NCBI GenBank assembly: GCA_021208605.1
Contig: JAJOJK010000001.1
Location: forward strand, 5,257 to 69,256
Direction of reading: 5' to 3'
From: Candidatus Woesebacteria bacterium
GTDB taxonomy: Bacteria; Patescibacteriota; Microgenomatia; UBA1400; UBA1396
DNA length: 64,000 nucleotides
Made by a program: the position numbers and the translations under genes. Each line of letters starts with the position of its first letter. The first letter of the stretch is position 1. The notes beneath the pieces are model-generated. The model worked only from the letters and a program-made list of their open reading frames with translations, made no database searches and was not told where the DNA came from. Positions 43,295 through 61,896 of this stretch are shown one piece after another.

Positions 43295-44311
43295 ATGATT
43301 GATACTTCTCTGGCCCAGCAAATTTGGAATGAAGTGGAACGCGCGCAGCGAATTCTGTTGCACATGCATCCTACCCCTGACGGCGACTCTGCCGGAAGCT
43401 CCCTCGCTCTGCGCGATGTCCTCGATTCCATGGGGAAAGATGTCACCTTGATTCAAGGCGATACTGCTTTTCCAGACTATTTGCGTCATCTTCCGGGTGC
43501 CGAAAACGTGGAACCACATCCTTACGGTTCGGTCGAAACGGAGCAGTTTGACCTGTTTATTATTCTTGATAGTGCCAACAAAGATCAGATTTCCCGCCAG
43601 TCAGAGGTAGTCTTCCCAGAAAATTTACGCACTCTTGTTATCGACCATCACGCCACCAACGAAGGCTACGGTGATATCAACTGGATTGATTCTGGCTATG
43701 TGGCGACCTGTCATATGGTGTTTGATCTTTTGACAGCGGCAAAGATAGAGATTTCTCGCGAAGCAGCCACCTGTTTGTTTGTTGGTATGTTTACGGACTC
43801 TGGCGGTTTCCAGTATCCACCGACTTCGGCTGCCACGCTCCACGCCGCCGCCGATCTCGCCGCCAAAGCGCCCGATTTTTCCGAGTACATTTTCCATATC
43901 AATAACACGTTTGATCCGGAAAACATGTACTACCGCGGTATTGCTTTGAAAAATATCGAGTTGTTTCATAACGGCCATATTGCTATCTCGGCAGTAAGCG
44001 CTTCCGAGCTCGATAGCCGCGGCATTCTCCCAGACCAAGCAGACAAAAGCTTTATTGCCAACCAACTTAAGAGTGTTGTCGGTTGGGATGTAGCGGTCGG
44101 ATTAGTAGAAAGTGAGCCTGGCGTTGTGAAAGCCAGTTTCCGTACGCGTAAACCAGAAATCTATCATGTCGGTAAAATTGCCGCCATGTTGGGTGGCGGC
44201 GGCCATCAAGCAGCGGCTGGTCTGACTCTCAAAACTTCACTGGATGATGCCAAGCGGCAGATTGTTGAGGCAGTGTTGGCGTGGGAAAATGAGCACGGAG
44301 CTACTGAGTAA
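43295..44311 (+). CDS. nrnA: DHH/DHHA1 phosphoesterase (NrnA-like nanoRNase/pAp phosphatase)
   Basis: DHH motif (VIDHHATN) and GGGH motif (MLGGGGHQAAAG). Confidence 0.8.
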   Translation: MIDTSLAQQIWNEVERAQRILLHMHPTPDGDSAGSSLALRDVLDSMGKDVTLIQGDTAFPDYLRHLPGAENVEPHPYGSVETEQFDLFIILDSANKDQISRQSEVVFPENLRTLVIDHHATNEGYGDINWIDSGYVATCHMVFDLLTAAKIEISREAATCLFVGMFTDSGGFQYPPTSAATLHAAADLAAKAPDFSEYIFHINNTFDPENMYYRGIALKNIELFHNGHIAISAVSASELDSRGILPDQADKSFIANQLKSVVGWDVAVGLVESEPGVVKASFRTRKPEIYHVGKIAAMLGGGGHQAAAGLTLKTSLDDAKRQIVEAVLAWENEHGATE

Positions 44312-45147: not shown

Positions 45148-45231
45148 TACCCCAAGATATGGCGCTTCCATCACACTCATATAAGGACGGTACTGCTCTC
45201 CCCGATTTCCCTGCTACAATACCCCTATCTG

Positions 45232-45305
45232 GCGCCAGTAGCTCAGCTGGATAGAGCAACTGCCTTCTAAGCAGTAGGTCGCGGGTTCGAGTCCCTCCTG
45301 GCGCA
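45232..45305 (+). tRNA. tRNA-Arg(TCT), CCA not encoded; 3' half overlapped by the recombinase gene end
   Basis: Acceptor GCGCCAG/CTGGCGC, D-arm GCTCAGCTGGATAGAGC, anticodon arm ACTGC-CTTCTAA-GCAGT, T-loop TTCGAGT. Confidence 0.85.
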
Positions 45306-47075
45306 CAAATTAGCATCCTTAACCCCGAACCTAAAGAAAAGCTCTTGTAGAATATCTTTAGGTAATCGGAAATGGATGTCGAGTTTATACGGGAGCATTT
45401 GCTCCTGTTTCTTTTTCCCAGAAATAATATCTGTTTCGTTTACCGGTCTGGACCGAACAACCACCTTTTCTATAAGGCTTACGAGCAGATCATGAGTAAA
45501 TCGTGGGTTACTCTTGAGATCAAGAAGTGAGTCTTGGTACGTCTGCTGGAAGTAGGTAAGGGTGTCAGCATATTGCTTGGAAAGTGTAATCTTGCCAATC
45601 TTTACTTCAATTTCATCTGCTTCTTTCTGCCAAGATTCGGCTTTCTGGTCTTCCTCAGCGAGTTGTGTTTTAAGTGCTTCTATAGAAGGAATGATGCCGG
45701 CCACATGTTGTTCTTGGAGCAGTTTCTTGCGCACAGGAGTTCCCTTTATAAGGTTGAGTAAGTATGCTTGTTTTTCCTGCAAATGCTTCTTTTCCAACAG
45801 GTTTGATTTCAGTGTGTTTTGATAGTTTATGACCGGTTCGGGGTTATCAAGAAGGAGTCGGACTTGTTCAAGTACGATATTCTCAACTTGGTCTCCAGGG
45901 AGTGGAATGACTGAGCAGGTATGGGAAAACTTCTTTGGATTCCTCCTGCCACACTTATACATGTAACTGATTGTCTGACCTTCATTCGTTGTTACTCTTC
46001 TGGATTCACCAGACCAGGATGGCATCGCATCCGCGCGCCCGCTGACTAAACAGTCTTCGCATTTAAGTAACCCGGAAAGCAGATAAATATGCTGCTCTTT
46101 CTTTTCCCTTGCAACGTTAGTACTAGTCGTTTTGAGTTTTTCAAGCCGTTTTTGAGCCATCTCAAAAACCACGTTTTCGATAATAGTGGGGTATGAGTAC
46201 TCTGTACGTTTCCATTCGGACTTAGGAAGCTTAGTTGCTCCGTTGTATTTGTGATAGTAATGAACGCCAATATACATCTCATTTGAGAGAATTTGACGTA
46301 CTTGATGGGCACGCCAGAAGTAAGGATCGTTCTTTTTCTTCGTCCGACCTTTTCGTTTTTGGTGGAACACGGCGGATGCTGAGGGGGATAGGATTTGTAG
46401 TCGCTTAAGTTCGTCTGCAATGAGCTGTGGTGTTTTATTTTGTGTTATTAACAGATCAAATATCATACTGACGATCTTGGCTTCTGGCTCAAAAACTTTT
46501 GCGGTCTTATCTGGATTCTTGATATAGCCAAAGGTAGCATTTTCCCCCATGATTATTCCTTTATTTACTGCTTGGCGAATACCATCTTGTGTGCGTTGCT
46601 TCATGGTTTCAATCTCAAGCTCGGCGATGACTCCAATGATGCTCAATATGGCGCGACCAAAAGGAGTGCCAGTATCTATGCTTTCATTTGCCGAAAGGAG
46701 CTTTACGCCATGTTCATTGAAAAGGTCAATCACATCCATGAGGACTTTGAGTCTTCGAGCGAACCGGTCTATACGATAAACAGCAACAACATCAAAAGGT
46801 TTTTTTCCATCTGGTGACTGAATAAGATCCTCTATTAACCGAGAAAAACCTGGCCGACTGCCAATTTCAGTGGTTCCACTGACTCCATCATCAACATACA
46901 CGTATTGAGGTCCTGCCAAAACGGCACGAGGAGTACCATCTTCGAGATGACCTTTCGATTTGACAAGGGACTCTACGGCCTCTTTTTGCAGATCAAGGCC
47001 ATATTTATCCACCTGATCATCAGTGGAGACTCTGAGATAGATAGCAACTCGAAGTTGCGTAGTTACGTCTGTCAT
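45267..47075 (-). CDS. Large serine recombinase (integrase); C-terminal 13 codons and the stop lie antisense inside tRNA-Arg(TCT)
   Basis: Resolvase catalytic N-domain AIYLRVSTDDQ...RIDRFAR, recombinase domain, zinc-ribbon cysteines (CEDC...CGRR...HTC) and a coiled-coil; the TAG stop sits in the tRNA anticodon loop. Confidence 0.85.
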   Translation of the reverse strand: MTDVTTQLRVAIYLRVSTDDQVDKYGLDLQKEAVESLVKSKGHLEDGTPRAVLAGPQYVYVDDGVSGTTEIGSRPGFSRLIEDLIQSPDGKKPFDVVAVYRIDRFARRLKVLMDVIDLFNEHGVKLLSANESIDTGTPFGRAILSIIGVIAELEIETMKQRTQDGIRQAVNKGIIMGENATFGYIKNPDKTAKVFEPEAKIVSMIFDLLITQNKTPQLIADELKRLQILSPSASAVFHQKRKGRTKKKNDPYFWRAHQVRQILSNEMYIGVHYYHKYNGATKLPKSEWKRTEYSYPTIIENVVFEMAQKRLEKLKTTSTNVAREKKEQHIYLLSGLLKCEDCLVSGRADAMPSWSGESRRVTTNEGQTISYMYKCGRRNPKKFSHTCSVIPLPGDQVENIVLEQVRLLLDNPEPVINYQNTLKSNLLEKKHLQEKQAYLLNLIKGTPVRKKLLQEQHVAGIIPSIEALKTQLAEEDQKAESWQKEADEIEVKIGKITLSKQYADTLTYFQQTYQDSLLDLKSNPRFTHDLLVSLIEKVVVRSRPVNETDIISGKKKQEQMLPYKLDIHFRLPKDILQELFFRFGVKDANLCARRDSNPRPTA

Positions 47076-47184
47076 GAATGCTGTGTTCTTGTATAGGAAC
47101 AGCAGACCCCGAAGTAGCTGTTTCAATGAATGATACACCATACTAGTGGGGGTTTTTACAGTAAGAGATATATAATAAGCTTTA

Positions 47185-47814
47185 ATGAACTTTTACTCAC
47201 AAATCCCTTTTTGGGAAAACAAACTCAGGCAGCGAGAGCTAAATTCGTTTAAAGAATCAATTGAACATTATTTCCAAGATCTTGAGTATGATGCCCTAGG
47301 TGACCCCATGGTTACTGAAAAAGGGATGAAAGTACGATCCTCGATAAATAAAAAAATAGACTACATAGGCGACGTTATTCGGTTGGCTGGAATAAATACG
47401 AAGATTACGTACTATCCTCCTCCAGCTATCGGTGGCCCGGTTACAACGCTCGATGTTATTGAAAACACCTTTAACCTTCGATCATTTAGCATTACTCCCA
47501 TAGAAATCATTGATCAACTTGATAAGGCACTCGGTATCTACGAGGCAGATGAAAAAAGGGCATTTATTCGTACCTTTAATCCTTTCTTTTGGATGGGAAG
47601 ACTATTTGTTTGGCTATCGTCACTTCCATTTATGTTCTTACACCATGCTGGCTTTGATGTGGTGAAGATACAAACTACTATATGGGGAAAGCTTTTGAAA
47701 CTTTTCTTTGATTGTGTGGCGTTCGCTGCGGGAGTCCTCACCATTTTCCAGGTGCTTGGATATGTTGGTGTTTTGCAATCACTAAAAGCAATTATTGATT
47801 CAATGTTGCCGTAA
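47185..47814 (+). CDS. Hypothetical protein with a C-terminal 2-TM region
   Basis: 209 aa, AT-rich, first gene after the integrase. Confidence 0.4.
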   Translation: MNFYSQIPFWENKLRQRELNSFKESIEHYFQDLEYDALGDPMVTEKGMKVRSSINKKIDYIGDVIRLAGINTKITYYPPPAIGGPVTTLDVIENTFNLRSFSITPIEIIDQLDKALGIYEADEKRAFIRTFNPFFWMGRLFVWLSSLPFMFLHHAGFDVVKIQTTIWGKLLKLFFDCVAFAAGVLTIFQVLGYVGVLQSLKAIIDSMLP

Positions 47815-47816
47815 AA

Positions 47817-48254
47817 TCACGGATTCTCTCGCAGTTTTCCATAGAGTAGGTGTAGTGTTGTCTCATCATCTGTTTCACTTGAGAAAATACCAACAGAGAG
47901 CTCCTTTACAGAGCTTGTTCCAGAAATAGGATAAACGCGATAGTTCTCAAGAGAAAACTGGCTTACGTGATACTGTTTTCGCAGTTCATCTGAATCGGCC
48001 GATTTAATAAGGCCAGCGAGCTTGTGAGCTGCTTTTACCGGGTCAGATTCATTTATAGCCTGAACAAGTGATTCACTCTTGGAAGGTTTGCCACTCACTT
48101 TCTTGCCATGAATGGTAACTTTAGCAGTAGGATCCATTTTTATGGCAATAAGGTCAGTAAACCCATCATTAATCTCAGTCTCTTCACTCGGTGAGTTTTC
48201 ATCTTCTTCATCGAGCAGATACTGTTTGTAGTTTTTGAGATCGATGACTGACAT
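47817..48254 (-). CDS. Hypothetical acidic protein
   Basis: 145 aa, AT-rich island gene, no recognisable motif. Confidence 0.4.
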   Translation of the reverse strand: MSVIDLKNYKQYLLDEEDENSPSEETEINDGFTDLIAIKMDPTAKVTIHGKKVSGKPSKSESLVQAINESDPVKAAHKLAGLIKSADSDELRKQYHVSQFSLENYRVYPISGTSSVKELSVGIFSSETDDETTLHLLYGKLRENP

Positions 48255-48335
48255 GGATTAACAGTATCCTACCAGAGTTTCAGAAGCATTCTAAACGAGG
48301 TATTATTAAATGATACATACGCAAGAAGGCTTTTT

Positions 48336-48716
48336 ATGGCAAAAGTTGGTAGACCTACTAAATACAAACGCAAATATTGTCAGGTAGCCTCGGATTTTCT
48401 TTCTCAAGGCTATTCCAAGGAGGCTTTAGCAGGAGAATTAGGGATTTCCAGGCAGTGCCTGTATGAATGGCTAGAGAAACATCAGGAATTTGGTGACACG
48501 GTGGCGCAGGCGGAAGCCAAGGCACAATGCATCTGGGAAAAGTACGGCCAAGATGCGGTTCAAGGGAAAATAAAAGGATTCAATACCTCGGTGTGGATGT
48601 TTGTGATGAAGAATCGCTTCGGATGGAAAGAGCGCGAAAGCATTACTTTTGATCAGGAGCCGATTACTGGAGTATCAATACTTGCTCCCGTGGGATCTAC
48701 TATTTCGGAAAGTTGA
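48336..48716 (+). CDS. HTH DNA-binding protein resembling a phage terminase small subunit (GRPTKY family)
   Basis: MAKVGRPTKY... and GISRQCLYEWLEKHQEF helix-turn-helix, as in prophage TerS-like DNA-packaging proteins. Confidence 0.45.
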   Translation: MAKVGRPTKYKRKYCQVASDFLSQGYSKEALAGELGISRQCLYEWLEKHQEFGDTVAQAEAKAQCIWEKYGQDAVQGKIKGFNTSVWMFVMKNRFGWKERESITFDQEPITGVSILAPVGSTISES

Positions 48717-49234
48717 ATACCAGCTTTCTCAAAAGCATCAAAATAAGCTTGATAATCAGATTCACTGTATGTGGTCATAACAATCTGCTTGATTCGCGCC
48801 GCTTTCTTCTCTTGATAGTCAGCGAAAACATCAGCTACAACAGATGCCGCATCATCTATTGGAAAGGCATGAGTTCCGGTAGATATGGAAGGAAAAGCAA
48901 TGGAGTCACACTCAAGCTTCTCAGCGAGTGCCAGTGATGCTTTATAGCACTGAGCTAGCAAAAGAGACTCTCTCCCGTTTTCACGACCATACAACGGCCC
49001 AACGGTATGAATAACATGGCTAGCTGGTAGGCAATAGCCTTTTGTAGGTACGACCTCACCGACTTCGCAGTGACCAATAATACGGCATTCTCTTTCAAGT
49101 TCTTTCCCAGCGGCTCGATGGATAGCGCCACAAACTCCACTTCCGGCTAAAAGCGACCGATTAGCAGAGTTCACAACAACATCAACTTGAAGAGTTGCTA
49201 TATCGCCTAAAAAGACACTTATTTTTGGTTTCAT
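48653..49234 (-). CDS. Macro domain protein (ADP-ribose/O-acetyl-ADP-ribose processing, YmdB-like)
   Basis: VVNSANRSLLAGSGVCGAIHRAAG and SIAFPSISTGTHAFP macro-domain signatures. Confidence 0.8.
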   Translation of the reverse strand: MKPKISVFLGDIATLQVDVVVNSANRSLLAGSGVCGAIHRAAGKELERECRIIGHCEVGEVVPTKGYCLPASHVIHTVGPLYGRENGRESLLLAQCYKASLALAEKLECDSIAFPSISTGTHAFPIDDAASVVADVFADYQEKKAARIKQIVMTTYSESDYQAYFDAFEKAGIQLSEIVDPTGASIDTPVIGS

Positions 49235-49293
49235 GGCTGACGAGGATATTTTTCCTTGTGGTCCATTAATACCATATTGTGAACAGATAGGAC

Positions 49294-49467
49294 TTAGCGT
49301 TTTTTCTTTCTCAATCCGAGCATTCGAGCTAAAATGGCGAAAACACCGATTAATCCGATAAGCTTTCCTACATTATAGGTAAAGGATGGACCAAACATTG
49401 TTCCCAAGCCGATTACTATGAAGATTAAGATGAACGCGCCTGCTACTCGAAAAAGCAACCTCTTCAT
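49294..49467 (-). CDS. Small hydrophobic protein (2 TM)
   Basis: MKRLLFRVAGAFILIFIVIGLG...; ATGA-coupled to a second 56-aa hydrophobic ORF (about 49464-49634, below the track threshold). Confidence 0.3.
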   Translation of the reverse strand: MKRLLFRVAGAFILIFIVIGLGTMFGPSFTYNVGKLIGLIGVFAILARMLGLRKKKR

Positions 49468-49723
49468 TTCTCTCCTCCGGATCGGCAAACATCAAAAAGT
49501 ATGAAAGTTGTGCATTCCCCTCTTATCTGCCTGGAAAACCAACGATACGTCCTTGTAATGTGGTTACTAAGCATGAACACGAAGATCAAAATGGCGATTA
49601 TTGGAGCAATGTACTGAATGATTTTTTCCGACATATGATTTGTTTGTCCTATGCATAAATAATAGCATAAACTCTCAATACTAGTGCGTAATAATTTAAT
49701 GCGGATTCATATGCAATATCTTC

Positions 49724-49984
49724 ATGAAAATAAAAAATATTCAAAAGGTCGAAGAACGCAGAAAAGAAAAGCAAGCTTTTGCCAAGAAACTTGGCGACCA
49801 TCTTCGAAAGGTTCGTAACAAGGTAGGAAAAAGCCAGGAAGACCTCTCAATGGATGCTGGCTACTACCGTACGTATGTTGGCAAGATCGAGCAAGGTCAC
49901 TATTCTCCAAGTGCTCACACCATTTGGCGACTAGCTCATACTCTGGGAATGAGCTTGGATGAGTTTTTTGAGGGGTTTAAGTAA
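49724..49984 (+). CDS. XRE-family (Cro/C1-type) helix-turn-helix transcriptional regulator
   Basis: LRKVRNKVGKSQEDLSMDAGYYRTYVGKIEQG...LGMSLDEFF is a classic HTH_XRE. Confidence 0.75.
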   Translation: MKIKNIQKVEERRKEKQAFAKKLGDHLRKVRNKVGKSQEDLSMDAGYYRTYVGKIEQGHYSPSAHTIWRLAHTLGMSLDEFFEGFK

Positions 49985-50074
49985 AACCTTTATTTTTTGA
50001 TTTAAAGCAATCAGTAGCATTCACTTACATAGTGGTAAAATTAGCGTGTTTTATAGATAGACTAGCTAGGTTAT

Positions 50075-51268
50075 ATGAAGCTTAAGACAATTGATAAAAA
50101 AGATTTGCGCGAAATCATCCAGAGTGGGCACATTAATTTTTTAATTGGTTCTGGTTGCTCTTCTGGCTATCTCCCAATGCTTGGCGATATTGAAAAAAGA
50201 ATGAATGATCCTGCTACTGAGGAGGATTCAAAGAAACAGTATCTTGCCATTATTAATAAATCAAAAGCGATTCTGGATGAAAATAGAGAAACAGATCAAT
50301 CTGAAAAAGCAAACCTACTGAAAACAAAAAAAGCGTATGGTGATTTCCTAAATTTCTGGTTAGAAACACTATCCAGGAGAGCATTACCAATCGTAAACAA
50401 GCAAATCAACGTTTTTACAACAAACTTTGATATGTTTATTGAAGATGCTTGTGAATCATCAAGTATCCCTTACAACGATGGATTTTCTGGACAAATAAAA
50501 CCTGAATTTGATCCAGCAAACTTTAATCGAATCCAAAAGTATAAAACTCTCCAGTTCGATAACATTTCTGATTTCCCTCTATTTAACATAGTAAAATTGC
50601 ATGGCTCTCTTTCATGGGAAGCGACGACAGATAAAACAATTGTATATTCCCAAGGGGATCACATTAAAGACAATCTGGGTACATTGTCAGGTTCTGCTTT
50701 TCTCGATGAGTATAAAAGCCAAGTCGCTGTAATTAATCCGAATGCGGAGAAACATTATGAAACTGTTCTGGATATTAGACATGCAGCACTCTTAAGAAAA
50801 TTCACATTAGAACTAGAAAAAGAAAACAGTATTTTATTTGTATTTGGAACCTCATTGGGTGATGGTCACATTAAGCACTTACTTGATACCGTAATGAGAA
50901 CGAATCCTACGTTGATAGTACTTTACTTTTCATTTTCTCCATATCAAACAGATAGGCTTGGCGAGAAAAAATATCCCAACCTATATGTTGTATACCCAGA
51001 CTTAAAGATAGAATCGTTTGATGCAGTGTTCGGCAGTGAGAGCAGGCATCAATGGGAGTCGTTCGTGGTGGATCCAAATGCTGAGAAAATTGAACCTGTA
51101 GATGAGATCAAGACCAGATTACATGAAATTTCAGAGGACACAGATGAAGGTATCGAATTAAAAAATAAATTGAAGTCCATTTTCGAATTCACTTTTGAGA
51201 AGAATACAGAATTTTTAATGGAGATCTTTCAAAAAAAGGTAGTTGATAATGAGCAACGAGAAATTTGA
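50075..51268 (+). CDS. SIR2-like (SIR2_2/DUF4020-type) NAD-utilising effector of a SIR2-HerA defense pair
   Basis: Gly-rich loop FLIGSGCSSGYLP, VFTTNFDMFIE (TTNYD-like) and KLHGSLSW (HGS) motifs. Confidence 0.65.
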   Translation: MKLKTIDKKDLREIIQSGHINFLIGSGCSSGYLPMLGDIEKRMNDPATEEDSKKQYLAIINKSKAILDENRETDQSEKANLLKTKKAYGDFLNFWLETLSRRALPIVNKQINVFTTNFDMFIEDACESSSIPYNDGFSGQIKPEFDPANFNRIQKYKTLQFDNISDFPLFNIVKLHGSLSWEATTDKTIVYSQGDHIKDNLGTLSGSAFLDEYKSQVAVINPNAEKHYETVLDIRHAALLRKFTLELEKENSILFVFGTSLGDGHIKHLLDTVMRTNPTLIVLYFSFSPYQTDRLGEKKYPNLYVVYPDLKIESFDAVFGSESRHQWESFVVDPNAEKIEPVDEIKTRLHEISEDTDEGIELKNKLKSIFEFTFEKNTEFLMEIFQKKVVDNEQREI

Positions 51269-53135
51269 TTTACAAGATGATCTTGCAAGCAATTCTGTTT
51301 TCACAATTGGGAATGTTTTCAGTGTTAGAGGAAAAGATATTGTTGTCAGAGTAAACAAAGATAAAAACCTCCCTCACCTCTTTTTTAAGGGTAAAACAGT
51401 AAAGAACGTTTCTGTAGGCCTGTCCAACTATGTAAAGATTCTTAAAGGATTTACAGAAATAATTTGCAAAGTTGAGGGCGAGTATTTAGAAGAAGACAAG
51501 TTTCAAACTAAAAAAACGTATGCCAATGAAAAGCAGAAAATTGAAAGGTTTCTCAACGTATCTGTCTTCGGTTTTTATGATAACGAAGGACAATTTCAGC
51601 ATGGTATAAAAGAAATGCCGTTAATCGGCAGTGAGTGTCGAATATTATCTAGAGAAGAGTTTGAGAGACTACATGAGTTATCAAATGATGATCTGTCAAT
51701 CCCTTTGGGAACACTTATTGACGAAGAAACTCAGGAAATATCTGTCTCGGTAAATAATCTTTTTGCAGGACATATAGGCATATTCGGAAATACTGGATCT
51801 GGAAAGTCAAATACTCTTGCCAAAATGTTTACCGAGTTATTCGCTTTGCAATCAAACAATAGTAATTTTAACTCCAAATCAAAGTTTATTTTTATAGACT
51901 TTAATGGCGAATACTCAGGTGATTTAACGTTATCAACTCCTAAAGAAATTTACAAACTCAATACTGAAATAGAACTGGAACACACCCGGTCAGAGAATAA
52001 AATTCCACTAACTGAGAAAAGCTTTATTGACCTTGAATTACTCTCAATATTGTCTAATGCTTCTGAAAAAACTCAAAAACCTTTTTTGAGTAGAGCTGTT
52101 AATTTGTATAAAAAAATAATAATAAAAGAAGAAGAAGATCCACTTGAATACTTTAAGAACATTCTGAAAATTAACGCTCTGCGAATCTTAAAGTTGAAAA
52201 ATAAGGACTTAGCATTCTTATGTCTAGACAGATATAAGCAAATATTAAAAATTCAAAATGATGATACGGAATTTACAATACCCGAATGGCATAACACTCA
52301 TTCCTATTTCAAATGTGGTGGTGAAGCCGACTATGACAATATATCTGATGAACAATATAAATCACAACCTATTTATATTAGAGCGGATGACTACACATTC
52401 CCTGAGAATATAATTGAAAAATTCTTGGATATAGCTAGAGTGCAATTATTATATGATTTACTTGATTACAGAGTTCAGAATGAACATGTTTACCCATGTA
52501 TAACTAAGCTTGAAAGTATTAAAAAGAGTATTAAAAAAGTAATTGATACTTCTGTAAATCATAATAGAGATATTTTCCGCCAGCATAACTTAGCAGTTAT
52601 CGATCTTAAATTCTCGAATAGAGAAATCAAAAAGGCAATCCCATTAGTTGTTTTGAAATGGTTGTATGAGAATCATAAAAACACATATGATGGCAACTCA
52701 TCGCTGCATATAGTTATTGATGAAGCTCATAATATCTTATCCGAGAACTCGGTCCGAGAATCAGAAACCTGGAAGGATTACAGACTTGAAACATTTGAAG
52801 AGATTATTAAAGAGGGTAGGAAGTTTGGAGTTTTCTTGACAATTGCCAGCCAAAGACCTTCTGATATTTCTCCTACAATAATTTCTCAGCTACATAATTA
52901 CTTTATTCACAAGTTAATGAATGAAAATGACTTAAGAGCTATTAATAAAGCTGTTAGTTATTTAGATAAGTTGTCATTTGACTCAATATCAAATCTTTCC
53001 AAAGGATGTTGTTTTATTGCTGGCCAACTCACACAATTTCCTCTCTCAGTAAAAGTGAAGTTGCTAGATAAACCTTTACAACCCAAAAGCGAAACGATTA
53101 ATCTGGATAAGCTTTGGAGGGGTAGAGGTAATTAA
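51249..53135 (+). CDS. HerA-like (DUF87) P-loop ATPase/helicase partner of SIR2
   Basis: Walker A GNTGSGKSNT, Walker B HIVIDEAHNIL, TIASQRPSDIS (HerA family); the ATG overlaps the SIR2 gene by 20 nt. Confidence 0.75.
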   Translation: MSNEKFDLQDDLASNSVFTIGNVFSVRGKDIVVRVNKDKNLPHLFFKGKTVKNVSVGLSNYVKILKGFTEIICKVEGEYLEEDKFQTKKTYANEKQKIERFLNVSVFGFYDNEGQFQHGIKEMPLIGSECRILSREEFERLHELSNDDLSIPLGTLIDEETQEISVSVNNLFAGHIGIFGNTGSGKSNTLAKMFTELFALQSNNSNFNSKSKFIFIDFNGEYSGDLTLSTPKEIYKLNTEIELEHTRSENKIPLTEKSFIDLELLSILSNASEKTQKPFLSRAVNLYKKIIIKEEEDPLEYFKNILKINALRILKLKNKDLAFLCLDRYKQILKIQNDDTEFTIPEWHNTHSYFKCGGEADYDNISDEQYKSQPIYIRADDYTFPENIIEKFLDIARVQLLYDLLDYRVQNEHVYPCITKLESIKKSIKKVIDTSVNHNRDIFRQHNLAVIDLKFSNREIKKAIPLVVLKWLYENHKNTYDGNSSLHIVIDEAHNILSENSVRESETWKDYRLETFEEIIKEGRKFGVFLTIASQRPSDISPTIISQLHNYFIHKLMNENDLRAINKAVSYLDKLSFDSISNLSKGCCFIAGQLTQFPLSVKVKLLDKPLQPKSETINLDKLWRGRGN

Positions 53136-54031
53136 TGTTGTTCTGCAATCACTTGCAAGTATCTTTCAAGTAATTGCCTATTCAGAATCATAAGGTTAAT
53201 ATCATATTCCATCAGAGCCTGTTTGTTTTTCCACAGAGCGATAAACCCGCCAGCGTCCTCAAAACCAGCAAGTTTACCTGTATGGATGTATTGTGATCTA
53301 ACTGGATGATAAAGTTTTTTCATCAAAGAAACCCACGTTTGAGAATAGGGCTCATCTATAAGATCATTTATGAGTTTTGCCATTTCTTGAACATGACTTG
53401 TGCTGTGAGAGAGTGCAGAGACTTCCTCGCATTCCGGGCATATAAGCTTTACTTCTTTTTCATGTACACTATGTGGTTCATCAGCCAACTGGTTTATTGA
53501 TGCCAAGTGTAGTGTCATGTACAAGGTGTATCGATACTGTGGATTAGGTAGATGAGCAATTTCTCGTGCATGGCAATAAGTTTGCAATGCTTGCCAAAAT
53601 TTTGTTTGTTTTTCAGGTGGTAGTTTATGAATGAGTTGAACATATGCAGCGATTCTGAGTGGCAAATCCCAATCCAACTGATTACCAAAGCGAATTTCTG
53701 GATTATAGAATTTTGAGGCTAGGTTACTTTCAATGAACTGATCAATTTCTTCATCTACTGTTTCCCAACGACACATAGGGATATTTGTATATGATAGACA
53801 AATAAGGTTTTTTATTCGTTCAACACTCTTATAGGAAGTTTCTTCATTTAGTTCACTTTTTATATCAAGGATTATCCCTAGTTCACCATCGTGTTCCATG
53901 CCCAAATGAGATCGACCCTTATAAGCAAAAATTTTCCCACCCTGAATAATAGAGTCGGCTAATGCTGGGAAAGTATATGATGGTTCTTTTGAGTTATAAA
54001 CGAACCCAGGAATGTATGTAAAAAGCAACAT
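53132..54031 (-). CDS. Hypothetical protein convergent on HerA (stop codons overlap)
   Basis: 299 aa, AT-rich, no recognisable motif. Confidence 0.45.
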   Translation of the reverse strand: MLLFTYIPGFVYNSKEPSYTFPALADSIIQGGKIFAYKGRSHLGMEHDGELGIILDIKSELNEETSYKSVERIKNLICLSYTNIPMCRWETVDEEIDQFIESNLASKFYNPEIRFGNQLDWDLPLRIAAYVQLIHKLPPEKQTKFWQALQTYCHAREIAHLPNPQYRYTLYMTLHLASINQLADEPHSVHEKEVKLICPECEEVSALSHSTSHVQEMAKLINDLIDEPYSQTWVSLMKKLYHPVRSQYIHTGKLAGFEDAGGFIALWKNKQALMEYDINLMILNRQLLERYLQVIAEQH

Positions 54032-54072
54032 TATGTTGATTATACTTTCTTGCTATGAAATAGTAATTCCAT

Positions 54073-54543
54073 ATGCCAGAACTTACTCGCAACGAACTTG
54101 CTATCGAAGATCTGCGCCGGCGTGCTAAGGATAATAAGGCCCAAAATGCTGCTCAATTCGCAACCCTGTCAGAGTCATATCTTGATAAAACAAGAAATGT
54201 TCTTTTTCTCATCAGTTTTGCTATCCTGACGTACTTAGGCGCAATTCAAAAAACTTTAACTACTTGTGAAACTGTATTTTTACTTGCTTCAATAATTTTT
54301 GGCATAGTTTCATATTTGGGGTCATATCGCTATGCTTGGGCGCTAAGCCGTTACTACTCTGATCTTGAACGCAATTTAGCAAGAGCGTTTCCGAGTCAGG
54401 AAGAATATAACCAGATGCTGTTGAATGAGTCGAGTATTAGTACGCAACATTCAAGAAGACATGTTCCTCAATTTTTTGCACTTGGATTTCTTCTTGCTCA
54501 GGCTCTAGTACTTTTCTCTACACTTTTGGGAATTTTTATCTAA
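54073..54543 (+). CDS. Hypothetical 3-TM membrane protein
   Basis: 156 aa; hydrophobic helices LFLISFAILTYLGAI, VFLLASIIFGIVSYLG and a C-terminal helix. Confidence 0.4.
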   Translation: MPELTRNELAIEDLRRRAKDNKAQNAAQFATLSESYLDKTRNVLFLISFAILTYLGAIQKTLTTCETVFLLASIIFGIVSYLGSYRYAWALSRYYSDLERNLARAFPSQEEYNQMLLNESSISTQHSRRHVPQFFALGFLLAQALVLFSTLLGIFI

Positions 54544-54545
54544 TG

Positions 54546-55469
54546 TCAGTTCACCCGATTTGGAAATTTACTTTTTGTAGCCTGAATTATAGCCTCAACC
54601 CACTGCTCAGCATTCTTTCTCATAGAGTCTTCTGTACACCATGCCAGCTCTGGACCAGCCCAGACGTTACCTTTGTGATCGAGCATGCTAGGTTTACTCT
54701 CCTCAAAACCATATCCGAACAAACCGTCGTTAGCCACCATTTTTAAGAGCAGGTCATGGTTGTATACATTATGGATAATGCTGGCAAAAATAGCAGTTTT
54801 CTTCATTGATCCCAGCATTTCGTCCGTAATTAACCCGTGCGTTTCTTCATTTTGAGCTACGGTTGGAATGATGACATCCGAGGTTTTCATTAATTGTGAG
54901 AGTTCTACACGCTCAAATCGGTCGTCAGTAGTGTTCTTTGACCAGTACTGAACTTTCATACCTAATCCAGCCATATTTTCTGCTACTGAACGCCCAATGT
55001 TGCCTAAGCCAATAATACCTGCTGTTTTCCCTCGAAGTTCAATACCCTGGTGTTTGATGTAGTCCTGTTTCCACTCGTCCTTAATGATTACGGGCAGTCT
55101 TCGTGCTAACGCAAAAACCATCATTGTGGCCCACTCTGCCACTGCAATTTTAGAAAACCCTCTCAGGTTAATGACAGGAATACTAAGAGTCTTAGCGAAA
55201 TTCACATCGAGCCAACTAAATGAGGTAGTTTGCAAGACGATTGCCTTGAGGTGTGGAATGCGCTCAATGACATCATTAGGGACCTTCCAGTCACAGAAAT
55301 CTGGATCAATGGCCAAGATACGATCTTCATCGCCGGTAAATAGTCCCTCTACTGAGTCAAAGCCATTCACTTCTGAGTGGAAAATAACATCACCAGCTTG
55401 TTTAAGACTATCAATCTGATCTGGAGAAAAGAGTGCATTGATATTTGGGCTGATGAGAAAGATTTTCAT
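54546..55469 (-). CDS. D-isomer-specific 2-hydroxyacid dehydrogenase family (NAD-binding)
   Basis: Rossmann motif GIIGLGNIGRSVA and the catalytic R/E/H layout of D-2-hydroxyacid dehydrogenases. Confidence 0.75.
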   Translation of the reverse strand: MKIFLISPNINALFSPDQIDSLKQAGDVIFHSEVNGFDSVEGLFTGDEDRILAIDPDFCDWKVPNDVIERIPHLKAIVLQTTSFSWLDVNFAKTLSIPVINLRGFSKIAVAEWATMMVFALARRLPVIIKDEWKQDYIKHQGIELRGKTAGIIGLGNIGRSVAENMAGLGMKVQYWSKNTTDDRFERVELSQLMKTSDVIIPTVAQNEETHGLITDEMLGSMKKTAIFASIIHNVYNHDLLLKMVANDGLFGYGFEESKPSMLDHKGNVWAGPELAWCTEDSMRKNAEQWVEAIIQATKSKFPNRVN

Positions 55470-55618
55470 ATGGCCATTGTACCTCACGATACCCACCTAT
55501 TCTTATACCTCTTGATCAATCTATCTAGTTCTGGCACCTGCACTATCAACGGTATGCCCGCCACTTTACCTACTTCGGGGTCATGCACGCTGACCCACAA
55601 GTCTGTTACAATACGACT

Positions 55619-55846
55619 ATGTCTACAGAATTGTCAGTCGAATCCCTTTTTGAGCAAATGGTGCAAGGCCTTGAAATGACTCCTGAGCAACACACAAGAA
55701 TATTCCAAGCTATTCAGCAAGGTTTATTAGCTGAGCCACAAACCGATGGCCAGCTAGAAACTGATATTCGTCTTGTGCAGTGGATGGATCAAGATTCAGA
55801 CTCAGGTTCAGATTCTGAACCTCGTTTTGTTCGCAAGCTGCGTTAA
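55619..55846 (+). CDS. Small hypothetical acidic protein
   Basis: Internal ATG (MSTELSVESL); 75 aa. Confidence 0.3.
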   Translation: MSTELSVESLFEQMVQGLEMTPEQHTRIFQAIQQGLLAEPQTDGQLETDIRLVQWMDQDSDSGSDSEPRFVRKLR

Positions 55847-55931
55847 AGCATTTGCAGCCACTTTTCCAATTTTCTTGATGGGTATGTTACGGTCTACTGT
55901 ATGAAACAAGGCTACGTTGCATAGAAGTATT

Positions 55932-56318
55932 TTACTCGTTTTGGAGCTCGTGGGAATCAAGTGTGACAGAATACTTCTGAACAATTATTTCCCAATCTGA
56001 TCGCAATGTACTTAGGTACTCTTCATACTGGTCACTCGGCTTGACCCAAGTGATATCCAAAAGTGTGTGCAGGAGAAAAATGATGTCACTGATTCTATTA
56101 ATATATGGTTTGAAATGAAATTTTTTAGTCTTTGGGTGTATTAAACTCTGATGGATAAGTGCACTTATAGTTTGCTCATCAATTTTTCCTTCAAAGAAAT
56201 CTCGGCACATGTTACAAGATAATTGAATAAAATCCTGAAGAGTTTCTTTTTGGGGCATAAACTCGTTTATATAAGCAGAAAACATTTTTTGTTTATTTCC
56301 TTCTCGAAATATGGACAT
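55932..56318 (-). CDS. Hypothetical protein
   Basis: 128 aa, AT-rich, last low-GC gene of the island core. Confidence 0.4.
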   Translation of the reverse strand: MSIFREGNKQKMFSAYINEFMPQKETLQDFIQLSCNMCRDFFEGKIDEQTISALIHQSLIHPKTKKFHFKPYINRISDIIFLLHTLLDITWVKPSDQYEEYLSTLRSDWEIIVQKYSVTLDSHELQNE

Positions 56319-56397
56319 CCTAAATTTTACACTATCTCTTTCTTGAGTCTCCCCGCAAACCCTGCTAGAGTGATTTCTCTACCGAAGAAAGGAAACT

Positions 56398-56973
56398 ATG
56401 GCAGACGACATGACCAATGACAGCACAAAAATGCTCCCAGCAGACGACACGCAAGAACTTGAGGCCGGCGAAGCCGTAGAAAGCCTGGAAGCCGGTGATG
56501 ATACCGATGCATTACCAGATGGCTACGAAATTGTCGCTACCGACGAAGCGACTGTCGAAGACAACGTTGAGCAAGCCGAACAATTCGGCGAAGCCCTCAC
56601 TTCTCTCCAGAACATTATTCAACGCTACTCTGATCAATATGATCAAGTGAACTCTCGCTACAAAGATCTGCGCGAGATGATGAAAAATATGTTTGACAAT
56701 GACGCTGAGTTGCAAGAGCTGTCCGAACAAGCCAAGACAGCGCAGCAAGACGCCAAGATGCGTAAACAACGCATTAAGGAGTCGCCAGAGTCAGTCGAGC
56801 TCCAGATGAAGATGAAAGAGACCAAAGAAGAAATTAACGAGATTCAAGAGACCTTGAATAACCACCTTTTGCGCTACTACCAGATGACTGGTTCGCAAGT
56901 GATCGAAGAGCCAGATGGCACGGAGCGTGAATTCAAGATTTCTGCCCGTCTCAAGTCAAAAAAGGCATCGTAA
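56398..56973 (+). CDS. Hypothetical acidic coiled-coil protein
   Basis: 191 aa, normal GC, Asp/Glu-rich N-terminus. Confidence 0.45.
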   Translation: MADDMTNDSTKMLPADDTQELEAGEAVESLEAGDDTDALPDGYEIVATDEATVEDNVEQAEQFGEALTSLQNIIQRYSDQYDQVNSRYKDLREMMKNMFDNDAELQELSEQAKTAQQDAKMRKQRIKESPESVELQMKMKETKEEINEIQETLNNHLLRYYQMTGSQVIEEPDGTEREFKISARLKSKKAS

Positions 56974-57023
56974 CACCAGCTTTTTGTTACATTTTTGTTT
57001 GCATTGATTGGTATAATAGAAGT

Positions 57024-58051
57024 ATGAGGGCAGGTGTCCGCATCCTACTGGTTACCCTATTTATACTCTTCGGATTTTTGAGGAGTGCTTCGGCTGCGGC
57101 GGCAACTGACTACGGTATGCACGTTCTGCGTCCAGAAGAGATAGAGACAATTGCCGCGCAGACAACCGAGTTGCGTCAAGAAAGCTCGGCGCCGCTCTAT
57201 GTAACGCTGCCATTCAGTTTAGACGATACTAAAGATTTAGATCGTTGGCGCACCGCCTTTCGGGTGGCTAAAGAGAATAACATCGTGCCTCTGGTGCGCC
57301 TGGTGACTCGTTTTGACACCGAGGCAAATGCCTGGGCAGTGCCGATCAGTACGAAATCGTGCAACTAACTAGTGCCTTAAACCAACTAGAGTGGCCACAG
57401 ACTGAGCGCCACGTCATTCTCTTTAATGAACCAAACCACGCGGCTGAATGGGGTGGCACTACTGATCCCGAAAGCTATGCTAGCATTTCATACTTTGCCG
57501 CCCAGTGGCTGAATACCGAGTCTGAAAACTACGTCGTTTTGCCGGCAGCTGCAGACTTAGCAGCTCCTAATGGACCAGTTACTATGGAAGCGTTCACTTT
57601 TTGGAAGCGAGCTTTGGCGGCAGAGCCTGACCTGCTCTACCAACTTGATGCCTGGAACTCGCATAGCTATCCAAATCCAGGTTTTGTGGCTGCTCCAACT
57701 CGTACAGGTCAAAACAGCTTGCGCGGTTTTGAACATGAGTTAGCTTTTTTGGACCAATACCAGATTAAAGAGTGGAAAGTCTATATCACCGAAACTGGCT
57801 GGCGCCAGACACCAACCAATGCGCGCAGCATGGCTTACTATTATGAATACGCGCATGAGAATATCTGGAACCACTCTCAAGTTGTCGCTGTGACACCATT
57901 CCTCTGGCAAGGTGCTCCAGGGCCATTTGCCGAGTTTAGTTTGCAAAACGAGGCGCAGAGTTTGACCTACCAAGGCGAAGCTCTCTTTGATTTGATCGCG
58001 CAGTCCGCAGCCGTATTGCTAACTGATAGCGCGGCGGCCTCTGGACGTTAG
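57024..58051 (+). pseudogene. Clan GH-A glycoside hydrolase-like gene (signal peptide; NEP acid/base and ITETGW nucleophile motifs) split into two frames near 57359
   Basis: Track ORFs 57024-57368 (frame 0, signal peptide) and 57359-58051 (frame 2, carrying VILFNEPNH and YITETGW) overlap by 10 nt. Confidence 0.5.
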
Positions 58052-58088
58052 TTTTGAAGCCTGTAATTCTGTAGAATAGAATGAAACT

Positions 58089-58534
58089 ATGCAAAAGAGA
58101 TGTTCTTCTTGCAAACTTCTTCTGAACGAAGAAGAATTTACGTGGAAGTATAAAAATGTAAAGAGATCCTTGTATTGTCGCACGTGTTCTCGGAGCTATG
58201 TCAGAGAACACTACAAAAGAATCGAGCCTATTATCTCAATAAAGCTCATCAGCAAAATAAAATAAAAAGAGATAAAATACAGCTACTTATAGGCAAGTAT
58301 CTTTCATCTCATCCCTGTGTTGATTGCGGCGAAACAGATATTCTTGTTTTGGAGTTTGATCATAGAGAAAGAAGCAGTAAAATAGGAGCAATTAGCGACT
58401 TAGTGAGAAAGGGTCTCCCTTTCTCAGCAATTCGCCAAGAGATGAGTAAGTGCGAAGTCCGCTGTGCAAACTGCCACCGCAGGAAAACAGCAGTGGAAAA
58501 CAAGAGTTGGAAACTCAATTTTTCGCGCCCGTAG
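58089..58534 (+). pseudogene. HNH homing-endonuclease-like protein (N-terminal Cys4 finger + HNH), frameshifted in an A4 run (about 58215)
   Basis: 59-aa ORF (CSSCK...CRTC) in one frame and 58175-58534 in another with CVDCGE...EFDH...CANCH; one extra A would join them (…EHYKKNRAYY…). Confidence 0.55.
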
Positions 58535-58599
58535 CTCAATGGATAGAGCACCTGTCTTCGGAACAGGGTTTGTTGGGGGTTCGAGTCCCTCCGGGCGCA
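58525..58599 (+). tRNA. tRNA-Arg(TCG), CCA not encoded
   Basis: Acceptor GCGCCCG/CGGGCGC, D-arm GCTCAATGGATAGAGC, anticodon arm CCTGT-CTTCGGA-ACAGG, T-loop TTCGAGT. Confidence 0.85.
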
Positions 58600-58629
58600 C
58601 ATAAAAAAGCATTTTGCTATACTCTTCTT

Positions 58630-59612: not shown

Positions 59613-60617
59613 CTAAGTTGCACTCAGGCGAACTGGCAGCTTATTCGTTTTGATAATATCGAGTACGGTTTCTTTGTAGGTGGTGCGTTCGTTCAAGAAG
59701 GCTGGAAGTAAAAGATCACTCACAGTGAGTTCACTCTGGCTCCAGGCTCGACTTATGTCATTCAGAGCAACTTTTCCTACGTACAGTTTTTCAACTGCAT
59801 AATCATTTTTGACTAACCACTGACACACTTGAATTGCTCCAGCTAAGTAAATTTGGTTTTTGGTGAAGGCGCCGGGAACAGAGGTGTCGGTCAGACCGCG
59901 CTTGACTTTCAAACAGATATTAAAGCGTTTCTGTTTATCAGGGAGATAGTCTTTCAGTTCGGCGAAGAGTTCGGAGAAAGAGAGGTACTCAGCTCGGCAG
60001 ACAGCGTAGTAGTTGAGTGCCGGGAAAAAGAGTAAACGGTCGTCCAGAGAAAGCTGGGCATGAATAACCGCCAGGCCCTCTTCAGTGGCCAAATATGGCG
60101 AGAAATCAAAGGCTTTAGCGCGGCGATGCCAGGGTTGCTTTTTGTCGTTAAGGCGGCGAAAAACGTGGGTGCCAATTTCGTGGTCTAGTACGCTCTGGAT
60201 GCCGTGCTCGCGATACTGCACCGGAGTACGGATGCGGAGAGTATTCTGGAAGACGCTGGTGCGAGCCATGTAGCTGCTGGAGAAACTGTAGGTAATGGTG
60301 TTGCTGAGGTGATTGCGATCGAGATATTCTTTGACGTATTCTTCCACTTCAGTTTGGGAAAGTACTCTGCCCTGCACCTCATCGTTGTAGTTTTCTTCGT
60401 TACCCCACTTGTGAACCAGTTTGTTGAGAATGGCTTGCGCCGTGGATAAGTACTCTTGCGAGACCGGACCATAGCGATACAGAGCTTCTTCGTCGATATC
60501 TTCTTCGTACTCAAATTGTGGGTTATAGAGCGGGTCGAAAAGGAACTTTTCCTCTTCTTCCTTGAGGTTGGTCGGGATCAGCTGGCTGAGGAATGTGGTG
60601 GTGTTTTTGGCAGACAT
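59613..60617 (-). CDS. DUF1704 (QEGLA-motif) protein, zincin-like HExxH
   Basis: LDHEIGTHVF (HExxH) and ATEEGLAV (QEGLA-like) motifs. Confidence 0.65.
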   Translation of the reverse strand: MSAKNTTTFLSQLIPTNLKEEEEKFLFDPLYNPQFEYEEDIDEEALYRYGPVSQEYLSTAQAILNKLVHKWGNEENYNDEVQGRVLSQTEVEEYVKEYLDRNHLSNTITYSFSSSYMARTSVFQNTLRIRTPVQYREHGIQSVLDHEIGTHVFRRLNDKKQPWHRRAKAFDFSPYLATEEGLAVIHAQLSLDDRLLFFPALNYYAVCRAEYLSFSELFAELKDYLPDKQKRFNICLKVKRGLTDTSVPGAFTKNQIYLAGAIQVCQWLVKNDYAVEKLYVGKVALNDISRAWSQSELTVSDLLLPAFLNERTTYKETVLDIIKTNKLPVRLSAT

Positions 60618-60618
60618 A

Positions 60619-61893: not shown

Positions 61894-61896
61894 GGG

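Follow-up and report, generated by a model that had tools for sequence, protein, structure and literature searches.

A pair of adjacent genes on the forward strand, encoding a putative SIR2-family NADase effector (50075-51268) and a HerA/DUF87-type ATPase (51249-53135), lies in a window of 64,000 nucleotides, the whole stretch of DNA analysed here, from a Candidatus Woesebacteria genome. It is preceded on the same strand by an XRE-family helix-turn-helix gene (49724-49984, 86 aa), with SIR2 starting 90 nt downstream of the latter. Farther upstream, a large serine recombinase of 624 aa (45267-47141, reverse strand) and a tRNA-Arg(TCT) gene (45232-45306, forward strand) mark the left end of a low-GC island. 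An earlier note, made from the letters of the sequence, had described the two genes as an anti-phage SIR2-HerA pair in a CPR-like organism. The host was well guessed: identical proteins are encoded by 3-4 NCBI MAGs of Candidatus Woesebacteria, which belong to the Patescibacteria/Microgenomates group.

The SIR2 and HerA genes

The SIR2 ORF encodes 397 aa, the length given by the earlier note, and is the "long" form of its clade. All three motifs named in that note were located in it: the Gly-rich loop GSGCS at residues 25-29, TTNFD at 115-119 and HGS at 176-178. The putative catalytic residues N117 and D119 (TTNFD) and H176 (HGS) are intact and invariant in an alignment of 30 clade members, which answers the question of Asn/His conservation that had been raised for this protein. 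N117 and H176 align residue for residue with the N226/H287 dyad of SaSir2, whose H287A variant loses NADase activity (PMC11514289), and the TTNFD and HGS motifs are the counterparts of the catalytic motifs N163/D165/H212 of PsSIR2 (PMC11472057).

Profile searches, proposed earlier as a check, returned significant matches for both proteins. SIR2 matched Pfam SIR2_2 above the gathering score (6.9e-14) and the PADLOC SIR2 model PDLC04080 at 1.6e-49, with residues 7-312 on profile positions 13-329 of 347. The part of the protein that this model leaves uncovered is an insertion of about 55 aa in the long form, at about residues 311-368, which the clade alignment of long and short forms places before a conserved C-terminal helix. 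The AF2 model of the SIR2 monomer reached a pLDDT of 75, a moderate confidence, and loops close to the active-site region were predicted with low confidence. When it was compared with the PDB by Foldseek, the best 38 matches were SIR2 chains of SIR2-HerA complexes (8wld, 8uae, 8su-series, 8w9l, 8yhx and 8j4u chains), with E values from 6e-12 to 3e-7 and TM scores of 0.40-0.56. Identity to the experimentally studied SIR2 subunits is 16-20%, at TM 0.4-0.56.

The longest HerA ORF, of 630 aa, begins at TTG 51243; ATG 51249, which is preceded by AAGG, gives 628 aa, and this is the form in public gene calls. The 629 aa quoted in the earlier note is thereby corrected to 628, while the three sequence blocks that it reported are present, in 628-aa numbering, as Walker A GNTGSGKS (180-187), Walker B VIDEAH (489-494) and ASQRP (533-537), all of them unchanged in 12 homologues. 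The protein matched Pfam DUF87 above the gathering score (6.8e-20) and the PADLOC HerA model PDLC04097 at 1.7e-174, with residues 18-627 on profile positions 4-613 of 618. With ATG 51249 as the start, the 5' end of HerA overlaps the 3' end of SIR2 by exactly 20 nt, as had been claimed. Such an overlap of two intact genes suggests that translation of SIR2 and HerA may be coupled.

That the pair has no present function and is carried as inactive or degenerating cargo is very improbable. Decay could be read from the sister MAG GCA_021208155.1, in which SIR2 is 349 aa long and HerA is split into 93 aa and 313 aa, and from the few conserved positions at which the SIR2 described here leaves the clade consensus (GTSLGDGH versus GFSLADKH). 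However, the same MAG also splits ArgRS and other housekeeping genes, and nearly all differences between the sister assemblies and the window are indels, each alignment having 1-21 gaps but 0-3 mismatches; this favours assembly error over decay. Neither ORF is truncated, three MAGs and an independent short-read contig carry identical copies of both, and every catalytic and nucleotide-binding residue is intact.

The island and the upstream XRE gene

The AT-rich island noticed earlier was confirmed, with a GC content of 0.394 (45200-57000) versus 0.483 and 0.477 in its flanks. The SIR2-HerA segment is nested in it at a still lower 0.30-0.35 (SIR2 0.351, HerA 0.324). At the left boundary, tRNA-Arg(TCT) was predicted by ARAGORN and scored 68.2 bits with the Rfam tRNA model; the 3' half of this tRNA is covered, on the opposite strand, by the final 40 nt of the recombinase gene. 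The recombinase carries Resolvase (2.9e-32), Recombinase (1.9e-16) and Zn_ribbon_recom domains and matched the phrog_95 integrase at 2.8e-91. Three short-read contigs from other samples end within the tRNA gene, at 45251, 45277 and 45279.

The earlier note had linked the island to a tRNA. This link stands on the left side, where the tRNA and the serine recombinase lie together; no att repeats or empty site came to light. The far side carries no copy of the tRNA 3' end, whose sole match is a separate tRNA-Arg(TCG) gene, and no island-free contig was found among the contigs with the flanking genes. Since serine recombinases do not require long repeats, the missing att repeats do not refute an island. 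The placement of the pair on a mobile or integrative island is supported, with a boundary defined by recombinase and tRNA on the left only.

The XRE gene (HTH_3, 1.4e-13) was described earlier as a regulator directly upstream of the pair. The gene is indeed directly 5' of SIR2, but a conserved role did not hold up: a homologue immediately 5' of SIR2 was found in 0 of 25 related loci, where three XRE-like ORFs lie 2-3 kb away or downstream. Its best PADLOC match is the restriction-modification (R-M) "Control_protein" model (2e-11), and capH is also matched (9e-7). These matches leave some room for a dedicated controller in a three-gene operon, comparable to the C proteins of R-M systems or to CapH of CBASS, which would delay or repress the toxic pair after transfer. 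XRE lies on the strand of SIR2, only 90 nt from it and with no terminator predicted in between, and since R-M genes are usual beside the relatives of this clade, XRE could be a C-protein-like gene left over from such a layout.

Such a controller is nevertheless unlikely. Besides the missing homologues, a protein of 45% identity (3.5e-19) is found in locus L043, a serine-recombinase island that carries the ORF299 module described below and has no SIR2-HerA. The operator search of 49480-50110, 5' of XRE and SIR2, yielded only short and weak inverted repeats and no convincing palindrome. A possible extended -10 element, TGGTAAAAT, was read by eye at 50033-50041 and could drive SIR2 without XRE; in the promoter and terminator scan, the number of sites was no greater than expected by chance. 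By sequence comparison, XRE is not part of the conserved SIR2-HerA system, and it is more likely a regulator of the island backbone than one dedicated to the pair. It may nonetheless also act on the pair, by repressing its expression or setting the timing, and some local control by read-through is conceivable.

Relatives and known SIR2-HerA systems

In all 25 related loci of species-representative genomes, SIR2 and HerA share a strand and SIR2 is the gene immediately 5' of HerA, so the homologues do occur as a pair, a point on which the earlier note had made its reading depend. The gene 5' of SIR2 is an R-M gene of varied type in 16 of 24 related loci, and in 12 of these 16 it is separated by a gap of no more than 25 nt or overlaps. 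Abi and toxin-antitoxin genes also occur among the neighbours. The pair has a lower GC than its flanks at this locus, and the same holds for every one of the 20 related loci that were measured.

By NCBIfam equivalog models, SIR2 scored 82 bits with SIR2_antiphage (cut-off 500) and HerA 129 bits with HerA_antiphage (cut-off 800); the pair therefore belongs to a divergent clade and does not count as equivalogous to those reference proteins. The PADLOC SIR2-HerA models match both proteins over nearly their full length and have the same gene order and orientation, the differences being the uncovered insertion in SIR2 and the XRE gene that precedes the pair here.

Three experimentally studied systems serve for comparison. 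E. coli Sir2-HerA, or Nezha (PDB 8J4U, 8SU9, 8UAE), is built of a HerA hexamer and a SIR2 dodecamer and shares with the locus the SIR2_2 and DUF87 genes and the TTN.D, HGS and Walker A/B motifs. Its chains matched by sequence at 5.4e-12 for SIR2 (8j4u_A) and 1.7e-20 for HerA (8j4u_M) and by fold at 1.6e-11 for SIR2; the structural alignment has a TM score of about 0.45 and about 18-20% identical residues. The SIR2 protein described here has a C-terminal helix, and in EcSir2 ring assembly is mediated by a C-terminal helix (PMC11514289). Types I-III are distinguished in E. coli by PMC13434337. SaHerA of the S. aureus system (PDB 8YHX/8YHO) is the best PDB sequence match of HerA (8yho, 1.2e-28); 8wiv, likewise from a SIR2-HerA complex, follows at 3.6e-21, and all these HerA alignments are partial. 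By sequence, SIR2 matched 8yhx_G at 3.1e-11 and 8w9l_A at 1.5e-9. The best fold match of SIR2 is PsSIR2 of the Paenibacillus system (PDB 8WLD/8W9L; 5.7e-12, TM 0.49-0.56). The S. aureus and Paenibacillus complexes are themselves unlike in stoichiometry (12-mer versus 14-mer) and in ATPase activity (PMC11514289, PMC11472057).

The closest relatives found in cultured bacteria are encoded on plasmids of Enterobacterales, one example being a plasmid of Yersinia massiliensis (NZ_CP028488.1), with 40% identity over 97% of the length for HerA and 33% for SIR2. This pair has the same gene order as the locus and has Abi and toxin-antitoxin genes alongside; unlike the locus, it is plasmid-borne, has a short-form SIR2 (346 aa) and lacks XRE. 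We know of no experimental test of it. DSR2 and Thoeris ThsA share the SIR2 NADase fold and the logic of NAD+ depletion, but they are weaker fold matches (E 2.7e-5 to 4.9e-4), ranking clearly below the SIR2-HerA subunits, and each consists of one polypeptide that carries its own sensor domains and is not paired with HerA.

Defence HMMs, intact catalytic residues, fold matches and adjacency in relatives make the SIR2-HerA reading well supported, in line with the earlier identification as an anti-phage pair. We consider it very probable that the locus is a two-gene SIR2-HerA abortive-infection system, carried as low-GC cargo of an integrative island in this Candidatus Woesebacteria genome. A function other than mainly anti-phage defence is highly improbable: the pair would then serve the island for addiction or stabilisation, or work as a HerA-based machine for processing DNA, like HerA-NurA in repair, in which SIR2 would be a regulatory partner. 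Carriage by a mobile element fits this alternative, as do the nuclease and helicase activities of published complexes (PMC11472057) and the matches of HerA to NCBIfam models of archaeal repair HerA (9e-28) and Ced DNA-import ATPases (1.6e-22), both under cut-off. However, the defence-specific models are the best by far (580 bits versus at most 97 bits), the partners NurA, Mre11 and Rad50 are absent nearby, the fold matches of SIR2 are to defence complexes, and the neighbours of the pair in relatives include defence genes of the R-M, Abi and toxin-antitoxin kinds.

As a SIR2-HerA system, the locus is an ordinary copy of what is already known and adds no new mechanism, because such systems are already well characterised and widespread. 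Its value is contextual: an intact SIR2-HerA lies on a mobile island in Woesebacteria, and half of its species-level relatives are CPR. Thirteen of the 25 species-representative genomes with this clade are Patescibacteria, so that SIR2-HerA in a CPR organism is not exceptional. The distribution suggests that abortive-infection immunity is freely exchanged into reduced CPR genomes. According to PMC12366544, the defence systems identified so far in Patescibacteria are very few, and the locus yields clonable candidates for studying the conflict between CPR bacteria and phages.

A broader proposal is tentative and, in our estimate, rather doubtful: that this SIR2-HerA clade is carried with preference by CPR/Patescibacteria and other small-celled or host-associated lineages, and that it normally moves joined to the 3' end of varied R-M operons. 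It draws on the share of Patescibacteria among the genomes with the clade (13 of 25, the phylum being about 5-10% of GTDB species) and on the R-M genes directly 5' of SIR2 in 16 of 24 related loci. If it were true, restriction and NAD+ depletion would form one coupled defence cassette, and suicide by NAD+ depletion would be a significant immune strategy of obligate episymbionts that probably rely on salvaged cofactors.

Proposed mechanism and neighbouring genes

By homology to the systems of E. coli, S. aureus and Paenibacillus, a HerA hexamer would dock through its N-terminal barrel on a SIR2 ring of 12 to 14 subunits, forming a complex that would be held without activity as long as the cell is healthy. 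Infection, by way of phage proteins, DNA ends and/or falling ATP, would then release the SIR2 NADase together with associated nuclease and ATPase activities. NAD+ would be cleaved to ADP-ribose and nicotinamide, growth of the infected cell would stop, and the phage cycle would be left incomplete. Infection-triggered NADase activity and protection against phages are described for published SIR2-HerA systems in PMC11514289, PMC11472057 and PMC13434337. The locus raises the question of how NAD+ depletion proceeds in cells that may live on salvaged cofactors. To our knowledge, there is no phage of Woesebacteria with which the trigger could be tested.

Two genes beyond HerA lie outside the SIR2-HerA system. 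ORF299 (53132-54031, reverse strand) converges on HerA, sharing 4 nt with that gene at its stop. The unannotated product has a beta domain at its N terminus, together with a HEPN-like helical domain (R245-x4-H250) and a zinc motif of the form CxxC..H..H. The gene may serve in defence or encode a toxin, separately from SIR2-HerA. ORF156 (54073-54543, forward strand) is membrane-protein-like and divergent from ORF299. The pairing recurs: locus L042 has a homologue of 66% identity in the same divergent layout, and L043 has a 155-aa gene at the place of ORF156. Together, ORF299 and ORF156 could represent a new pair of defence genes of the HEPN type.

Gene organisation and family assignment

The three open reading frames that the earlier note read as a two-gene anti-phage operon with an upstream regulator are all present where it placed them, on the forward strand: an XRE gene (49724-49984, 86 aa), a SIR2 gene (50075-51268, 397 aa) and a HerA gene ending at 53135. 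The longest HerA frame begins at a TTG codon (51243) and encodes 630 aa; the ATG at 51249, which follows an AAGG and is the start chosen by public gene calls, gives 628 aa (51249-53135), one residue fewer than the 629 aa claimed, and overlaps the 3' end of SIR2 by exactly the 20 nt that had been described. Every quoted motif was recovered, namely GSGCS (residues 25-29), TTNFD (115-119) and HGS (176-178) in SIR2, and GNTGSGKS (180-187), VIDEAH (489-494) and ASQRP (533-537) in the 628-aa numbering of HerA.

Profile searches identified each protein without ambiguity. Scores exceeded the Pfam gathering score for SIR2_2 (6.9e-14), the DUF87/HerA central domain (6.8e-20) and, in the XRE protein, HTH_3 (1.4e-13). 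With PADLOC, the SIR2 model PDLC04080 was matched at 1.6e-49 and the HerA model PDLC04097 at 1.7e-174, the latter across residues 18-627 and reaching 613 of the 618 profile positions. By sequence, SIR2 matched the SIR2 chains of the solved E. coli (8j4u/8su9), S. aureus (8yhx) and Paenibacillus (8w9l) complexes, and HerA matched the HerA chains of the same complexes. The active site is retained as well: N117 and H176 of the window SIR2 are aligned by HMMER with N226 and H287 of the S. aureus protein SaSir2, the proposed catalytic dyad, in which H287A abolishes NADase activity (PMC11514289). The putative catalytic residues of the Paenibacillus protein PsSIR2, N163/D165/H212 (PMC11472057), correspond to the TTN.D and HGS motifs of the window SIR2, and none of these residues varies among 30 aligned members of the clade.

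An AlphaFold2 model of the SIR2 monomer (pLDDT 75, pTM 0.78) was compared with known structures using Foldseek. The first 38 matches were SIR2 subunits of solved SIR2-HerA complexes (E 6e-12 to 3e-7), and DSR2 and ThsA ranked only after them. These matches are remote (16-20% identity, TM 0.40-0.56), and the window proteins score far below the cut-offs of the NCBIfam equivalogs SIR2_antiphage and HerA_antiphage; the pair thus belongs to a divergent clade of the SIR2-HerA family and not among the orthologues of the studied proteins. The SIR2-HerA identity first proposed is well supported: both proteins are homologous to the known pair and keep their active sites, their genes are coupled, and the genomic context agrees.

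From published systems we infer how the pair may work. A HerA hexamer would dock via its N-terminal barrel on a ring of 12 or 14 SIR2 subunits arranged in two layers, and the NADase would be autoinhibited before infection. The triggers so far described in published systems include falling ATP, DNA ends and proteins of the phage; activation would then lead to NAD+ depletion with accompanying nuclease activity, and infection would be aborted. Within the clade, SIR2 occurs in two length classes, one short (about 336 aa) and one long (about 390 aa), and the window protein belongs to the long class. The long form carries an acidic, partly helical insertion of about 55 aa (residues ~311-368) ahead of a shared C-terminal FEKxTEYL helix.

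Distribution and genomic context of related pairs

GTDB species, each represented by a single genome and the source genome not being among them, were scanned with a HerA profile; this returned 26 loci, 25 of which encode a close HerA relative (53-80% identity). In all 25 the HerA gene is immediately preceded by a co-oriented gene for a SIR2 homologue (55-63% identity). Homologues thus clearly do co-occur as a pair elsewhere; had they never done so, the reading would have been refuted. Cultured relatives, with about 40% HerA identity, are found on plasmids of Enterobacterales, Listeria, Rhodococcus and others; in Yersinia massiliensis a 33%-identical SIR2 gene precedes HerA, and Abi and toxin-antitoxin genes flank the two. 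None of the phage records searched carries a member of the HerA clade, the single weak match being a terminase.

The window proteins were found identical in the metagenome-assembled genome GCA_021208925.1 (contig JAJOJC010000022.1) and in sister assemblies, named by their submitters Candidatus Woesebacteria bacterium, a member of the Patescibacteria/Microgenomates group. On the submitters' taxonomy, the earlier guess of a CPR-like host is therefore supported. SIR2-HerA is not unusual for CPR: 13 of the 25 related loci, all in species-representative genomes, come from Patescibacteria. These carriers comprise Buchananbacteria, Uhrbacteria, Saccharibacteria, Paceibacterota, Parcubacteria, Peribacteria and unclassified members, and the others belong to Bacteroidota, Ignavibacteriaceae, Fibrobacterota, Gammaproteobacteria, Bdellovibrionales, Chlamydiota and Dormiibacterota. 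A literature search on SIR2, abortive infection and CPR returned no paper combining all three terms.

Restriction-modification genes of several types directly precede SIR2, in the same orientation, in 16 of 24 related loci: a type I HsdM-S fusion (four loci), GmrSD-HNH (four), Type III res (three), HpaII (two), and AlwI, an Eco57I/MmeI-like type IIG enzyme and an N6/N4 methyltransferase (one each). The gap to SIR2 is at most 25 nt, or the genes overlap, in 12 of these 16. Upstream genes that reach or nearly reach the start of SIR2 include those at 5032-6978 in L003, 5865-6983 in L004, 3867-7004 in L015 and 5177-6268 in L024, all related SIR2-HerA loci. Such tight linkage to differing upstream types is strong defence-island evidence for the clade and reveals the pair as a self-contained cassette landing in differing defence contexts. 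The window copy is without an upstream restriction-modification gene. GC content of the pair was below that of the distal flanks in all 20 related loci measured.

The XRE gene and the host island

The XRE protein is a genuine HTH_3 member, and PADLOC matches it best to the restriction-modification 'Control_protein' model (2e-11). Its proposed role as regulator of the pair is not well supported. An XRE homologue was not found to recur next to the pair in the 25 related loci, and a 45%-identical homologue (3.5e-19) lies in L043, an island with a serine recombinase and an ORF299-type module (described below) that is free of SIR2-HerA. No clear operator palindrome was found upstream of XRE or of SIR2. 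Across 49200-54200, 16 promoter-like sites were detected versus 19 expected by chance, and a terminator scan, itself no better than chance, returned none between XRE and SIR2 and none after HerA. The case for dedicated regulation is consequently weak, and XRE is taken as part of the island backbone, although it may still act on the pair locally.

The AT-rich island in which the genes had been placed is compositionally real, with a GC content of 0.39 over 45.2-57 kb versus 0.48 in the flanks, and the nested pair at 0.30-0.35. It starts on the left with tRNA-Arg(TCT) (45232-45306) and a 624-aa serine recombinase (45267-47141, reverse strand; phrog_95 integrase, 2.8e-91). The final 40 nt of the recombinase frame, with its stop codon, lie antisense to the 3' half of the apparently intact tRNA gene. 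Inside this tRNA lies one end of each of three short-read contigs from other samples (45251, 45277, 45279), and contig breaks on the right side are scattered (53780, 54563, 58156, 58319). Direct repeats of the tRNA 3' end, sought at the far side of the island, yielded only an unrelated tRNA-Arg(TCG) gene (58525-58600); an empty site was sought through contigs with the exact flanking proteins DHH (43295-44311) and MATCAP (59613-60617), and nine of nine were collinear with the window. The right end near 57 kb is therefore a compositional estimate only.

Nearly all differences between the window and its sister assemblies (L001, L029, L032) are indels, each alignment having 1-21 gaps and 0-3 mismatches, and the sister assemblies show split housekeeping genes (ArgRS, CorA). 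This looks like assembly error, by which the apparent truncation of SIR2 and HerA in GCA_021208155.1 would be explained. A 342-aa gene called in comparison locus L002 is frameshifted in the window (57024-58052).

ORF299 and other island cargo

Directly downstream of HerA, ORF299 (53132-54031, reverse strand) matched no family in Pfam, PADLOC, PHROGs or NCBIfam. About 30 homologues share an invariant CxxC..H..H pattern and a near-invariant R245-x4-H250, and the structural model is confident (pLDDT 85), with no match at E <=0.001 in a fold search of a viral structure library. ORF299 was considered as a third SIR2-HerA component and rejected, being absent from all related SIR2-HerA loci and occurring elsewhere without the pair. 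Its homologues adjoin ApeA_NTD1, DUF5677, DUF4276 and serine-recombinase genes, and in two of four distinct contexts examined one is divergently paired with a gene of about 155 aa resembling ORF156 (54073-54543, forward strand). ORF299 may represent a separate, so far undescribed defence or toxin module.

A Macro gene (48653-49234, reverse strand) was likewise weighed as a SIR2 partner handling ADP-ribose or O-acetyl-ADP-ribose. The link is not conserved and was rejected because no Macro homologue lies within 8 kb of the pair in any of the 25 related loci, and because the gene is on the opposite strand with three genes between. Its product resembles O-acetyl-ADP-ribose deacetylase (NF001664, 1.1e-49, below its cut-off). 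Converging on it with a 64-nt overlap is a gene (48336-48716, forward strand) for a 126-aa terminase-small-subunit-like HTH protein (phrog_309, 6.9e-23; GP3_package, 9.6e-8); together with the recombinase, these two genes suggest a prophage remnant or satellite-like element. Between Macro and XRE lie two small overlapping frames of 64 and 56 aa (49294-49634, reverse strand), whose sequences look strongly hydrophobic and which had no homologues in related loci.

ORF209 (47185-47814, forward strand) has a 38%-identical homologue in L042 (6922-7542), directly downstream of an ORF299 homologue. ORF156, ORF299 and ORF209 are contiguous in L042, whereas in the window they are 5.3 kb apart, with SIR2-HerA included in the interval, and differ in orientation, which hints at modular reshuffling of the cargo. 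Just past the island, a cluster of MATCAP (PF08014), ATP-grasp (ATPgrasp_ST) and 7TM_transglut genes (59613-62865, reverse strand) resembles a peptide-modification or ligase system, with no apparent connection to the pair.
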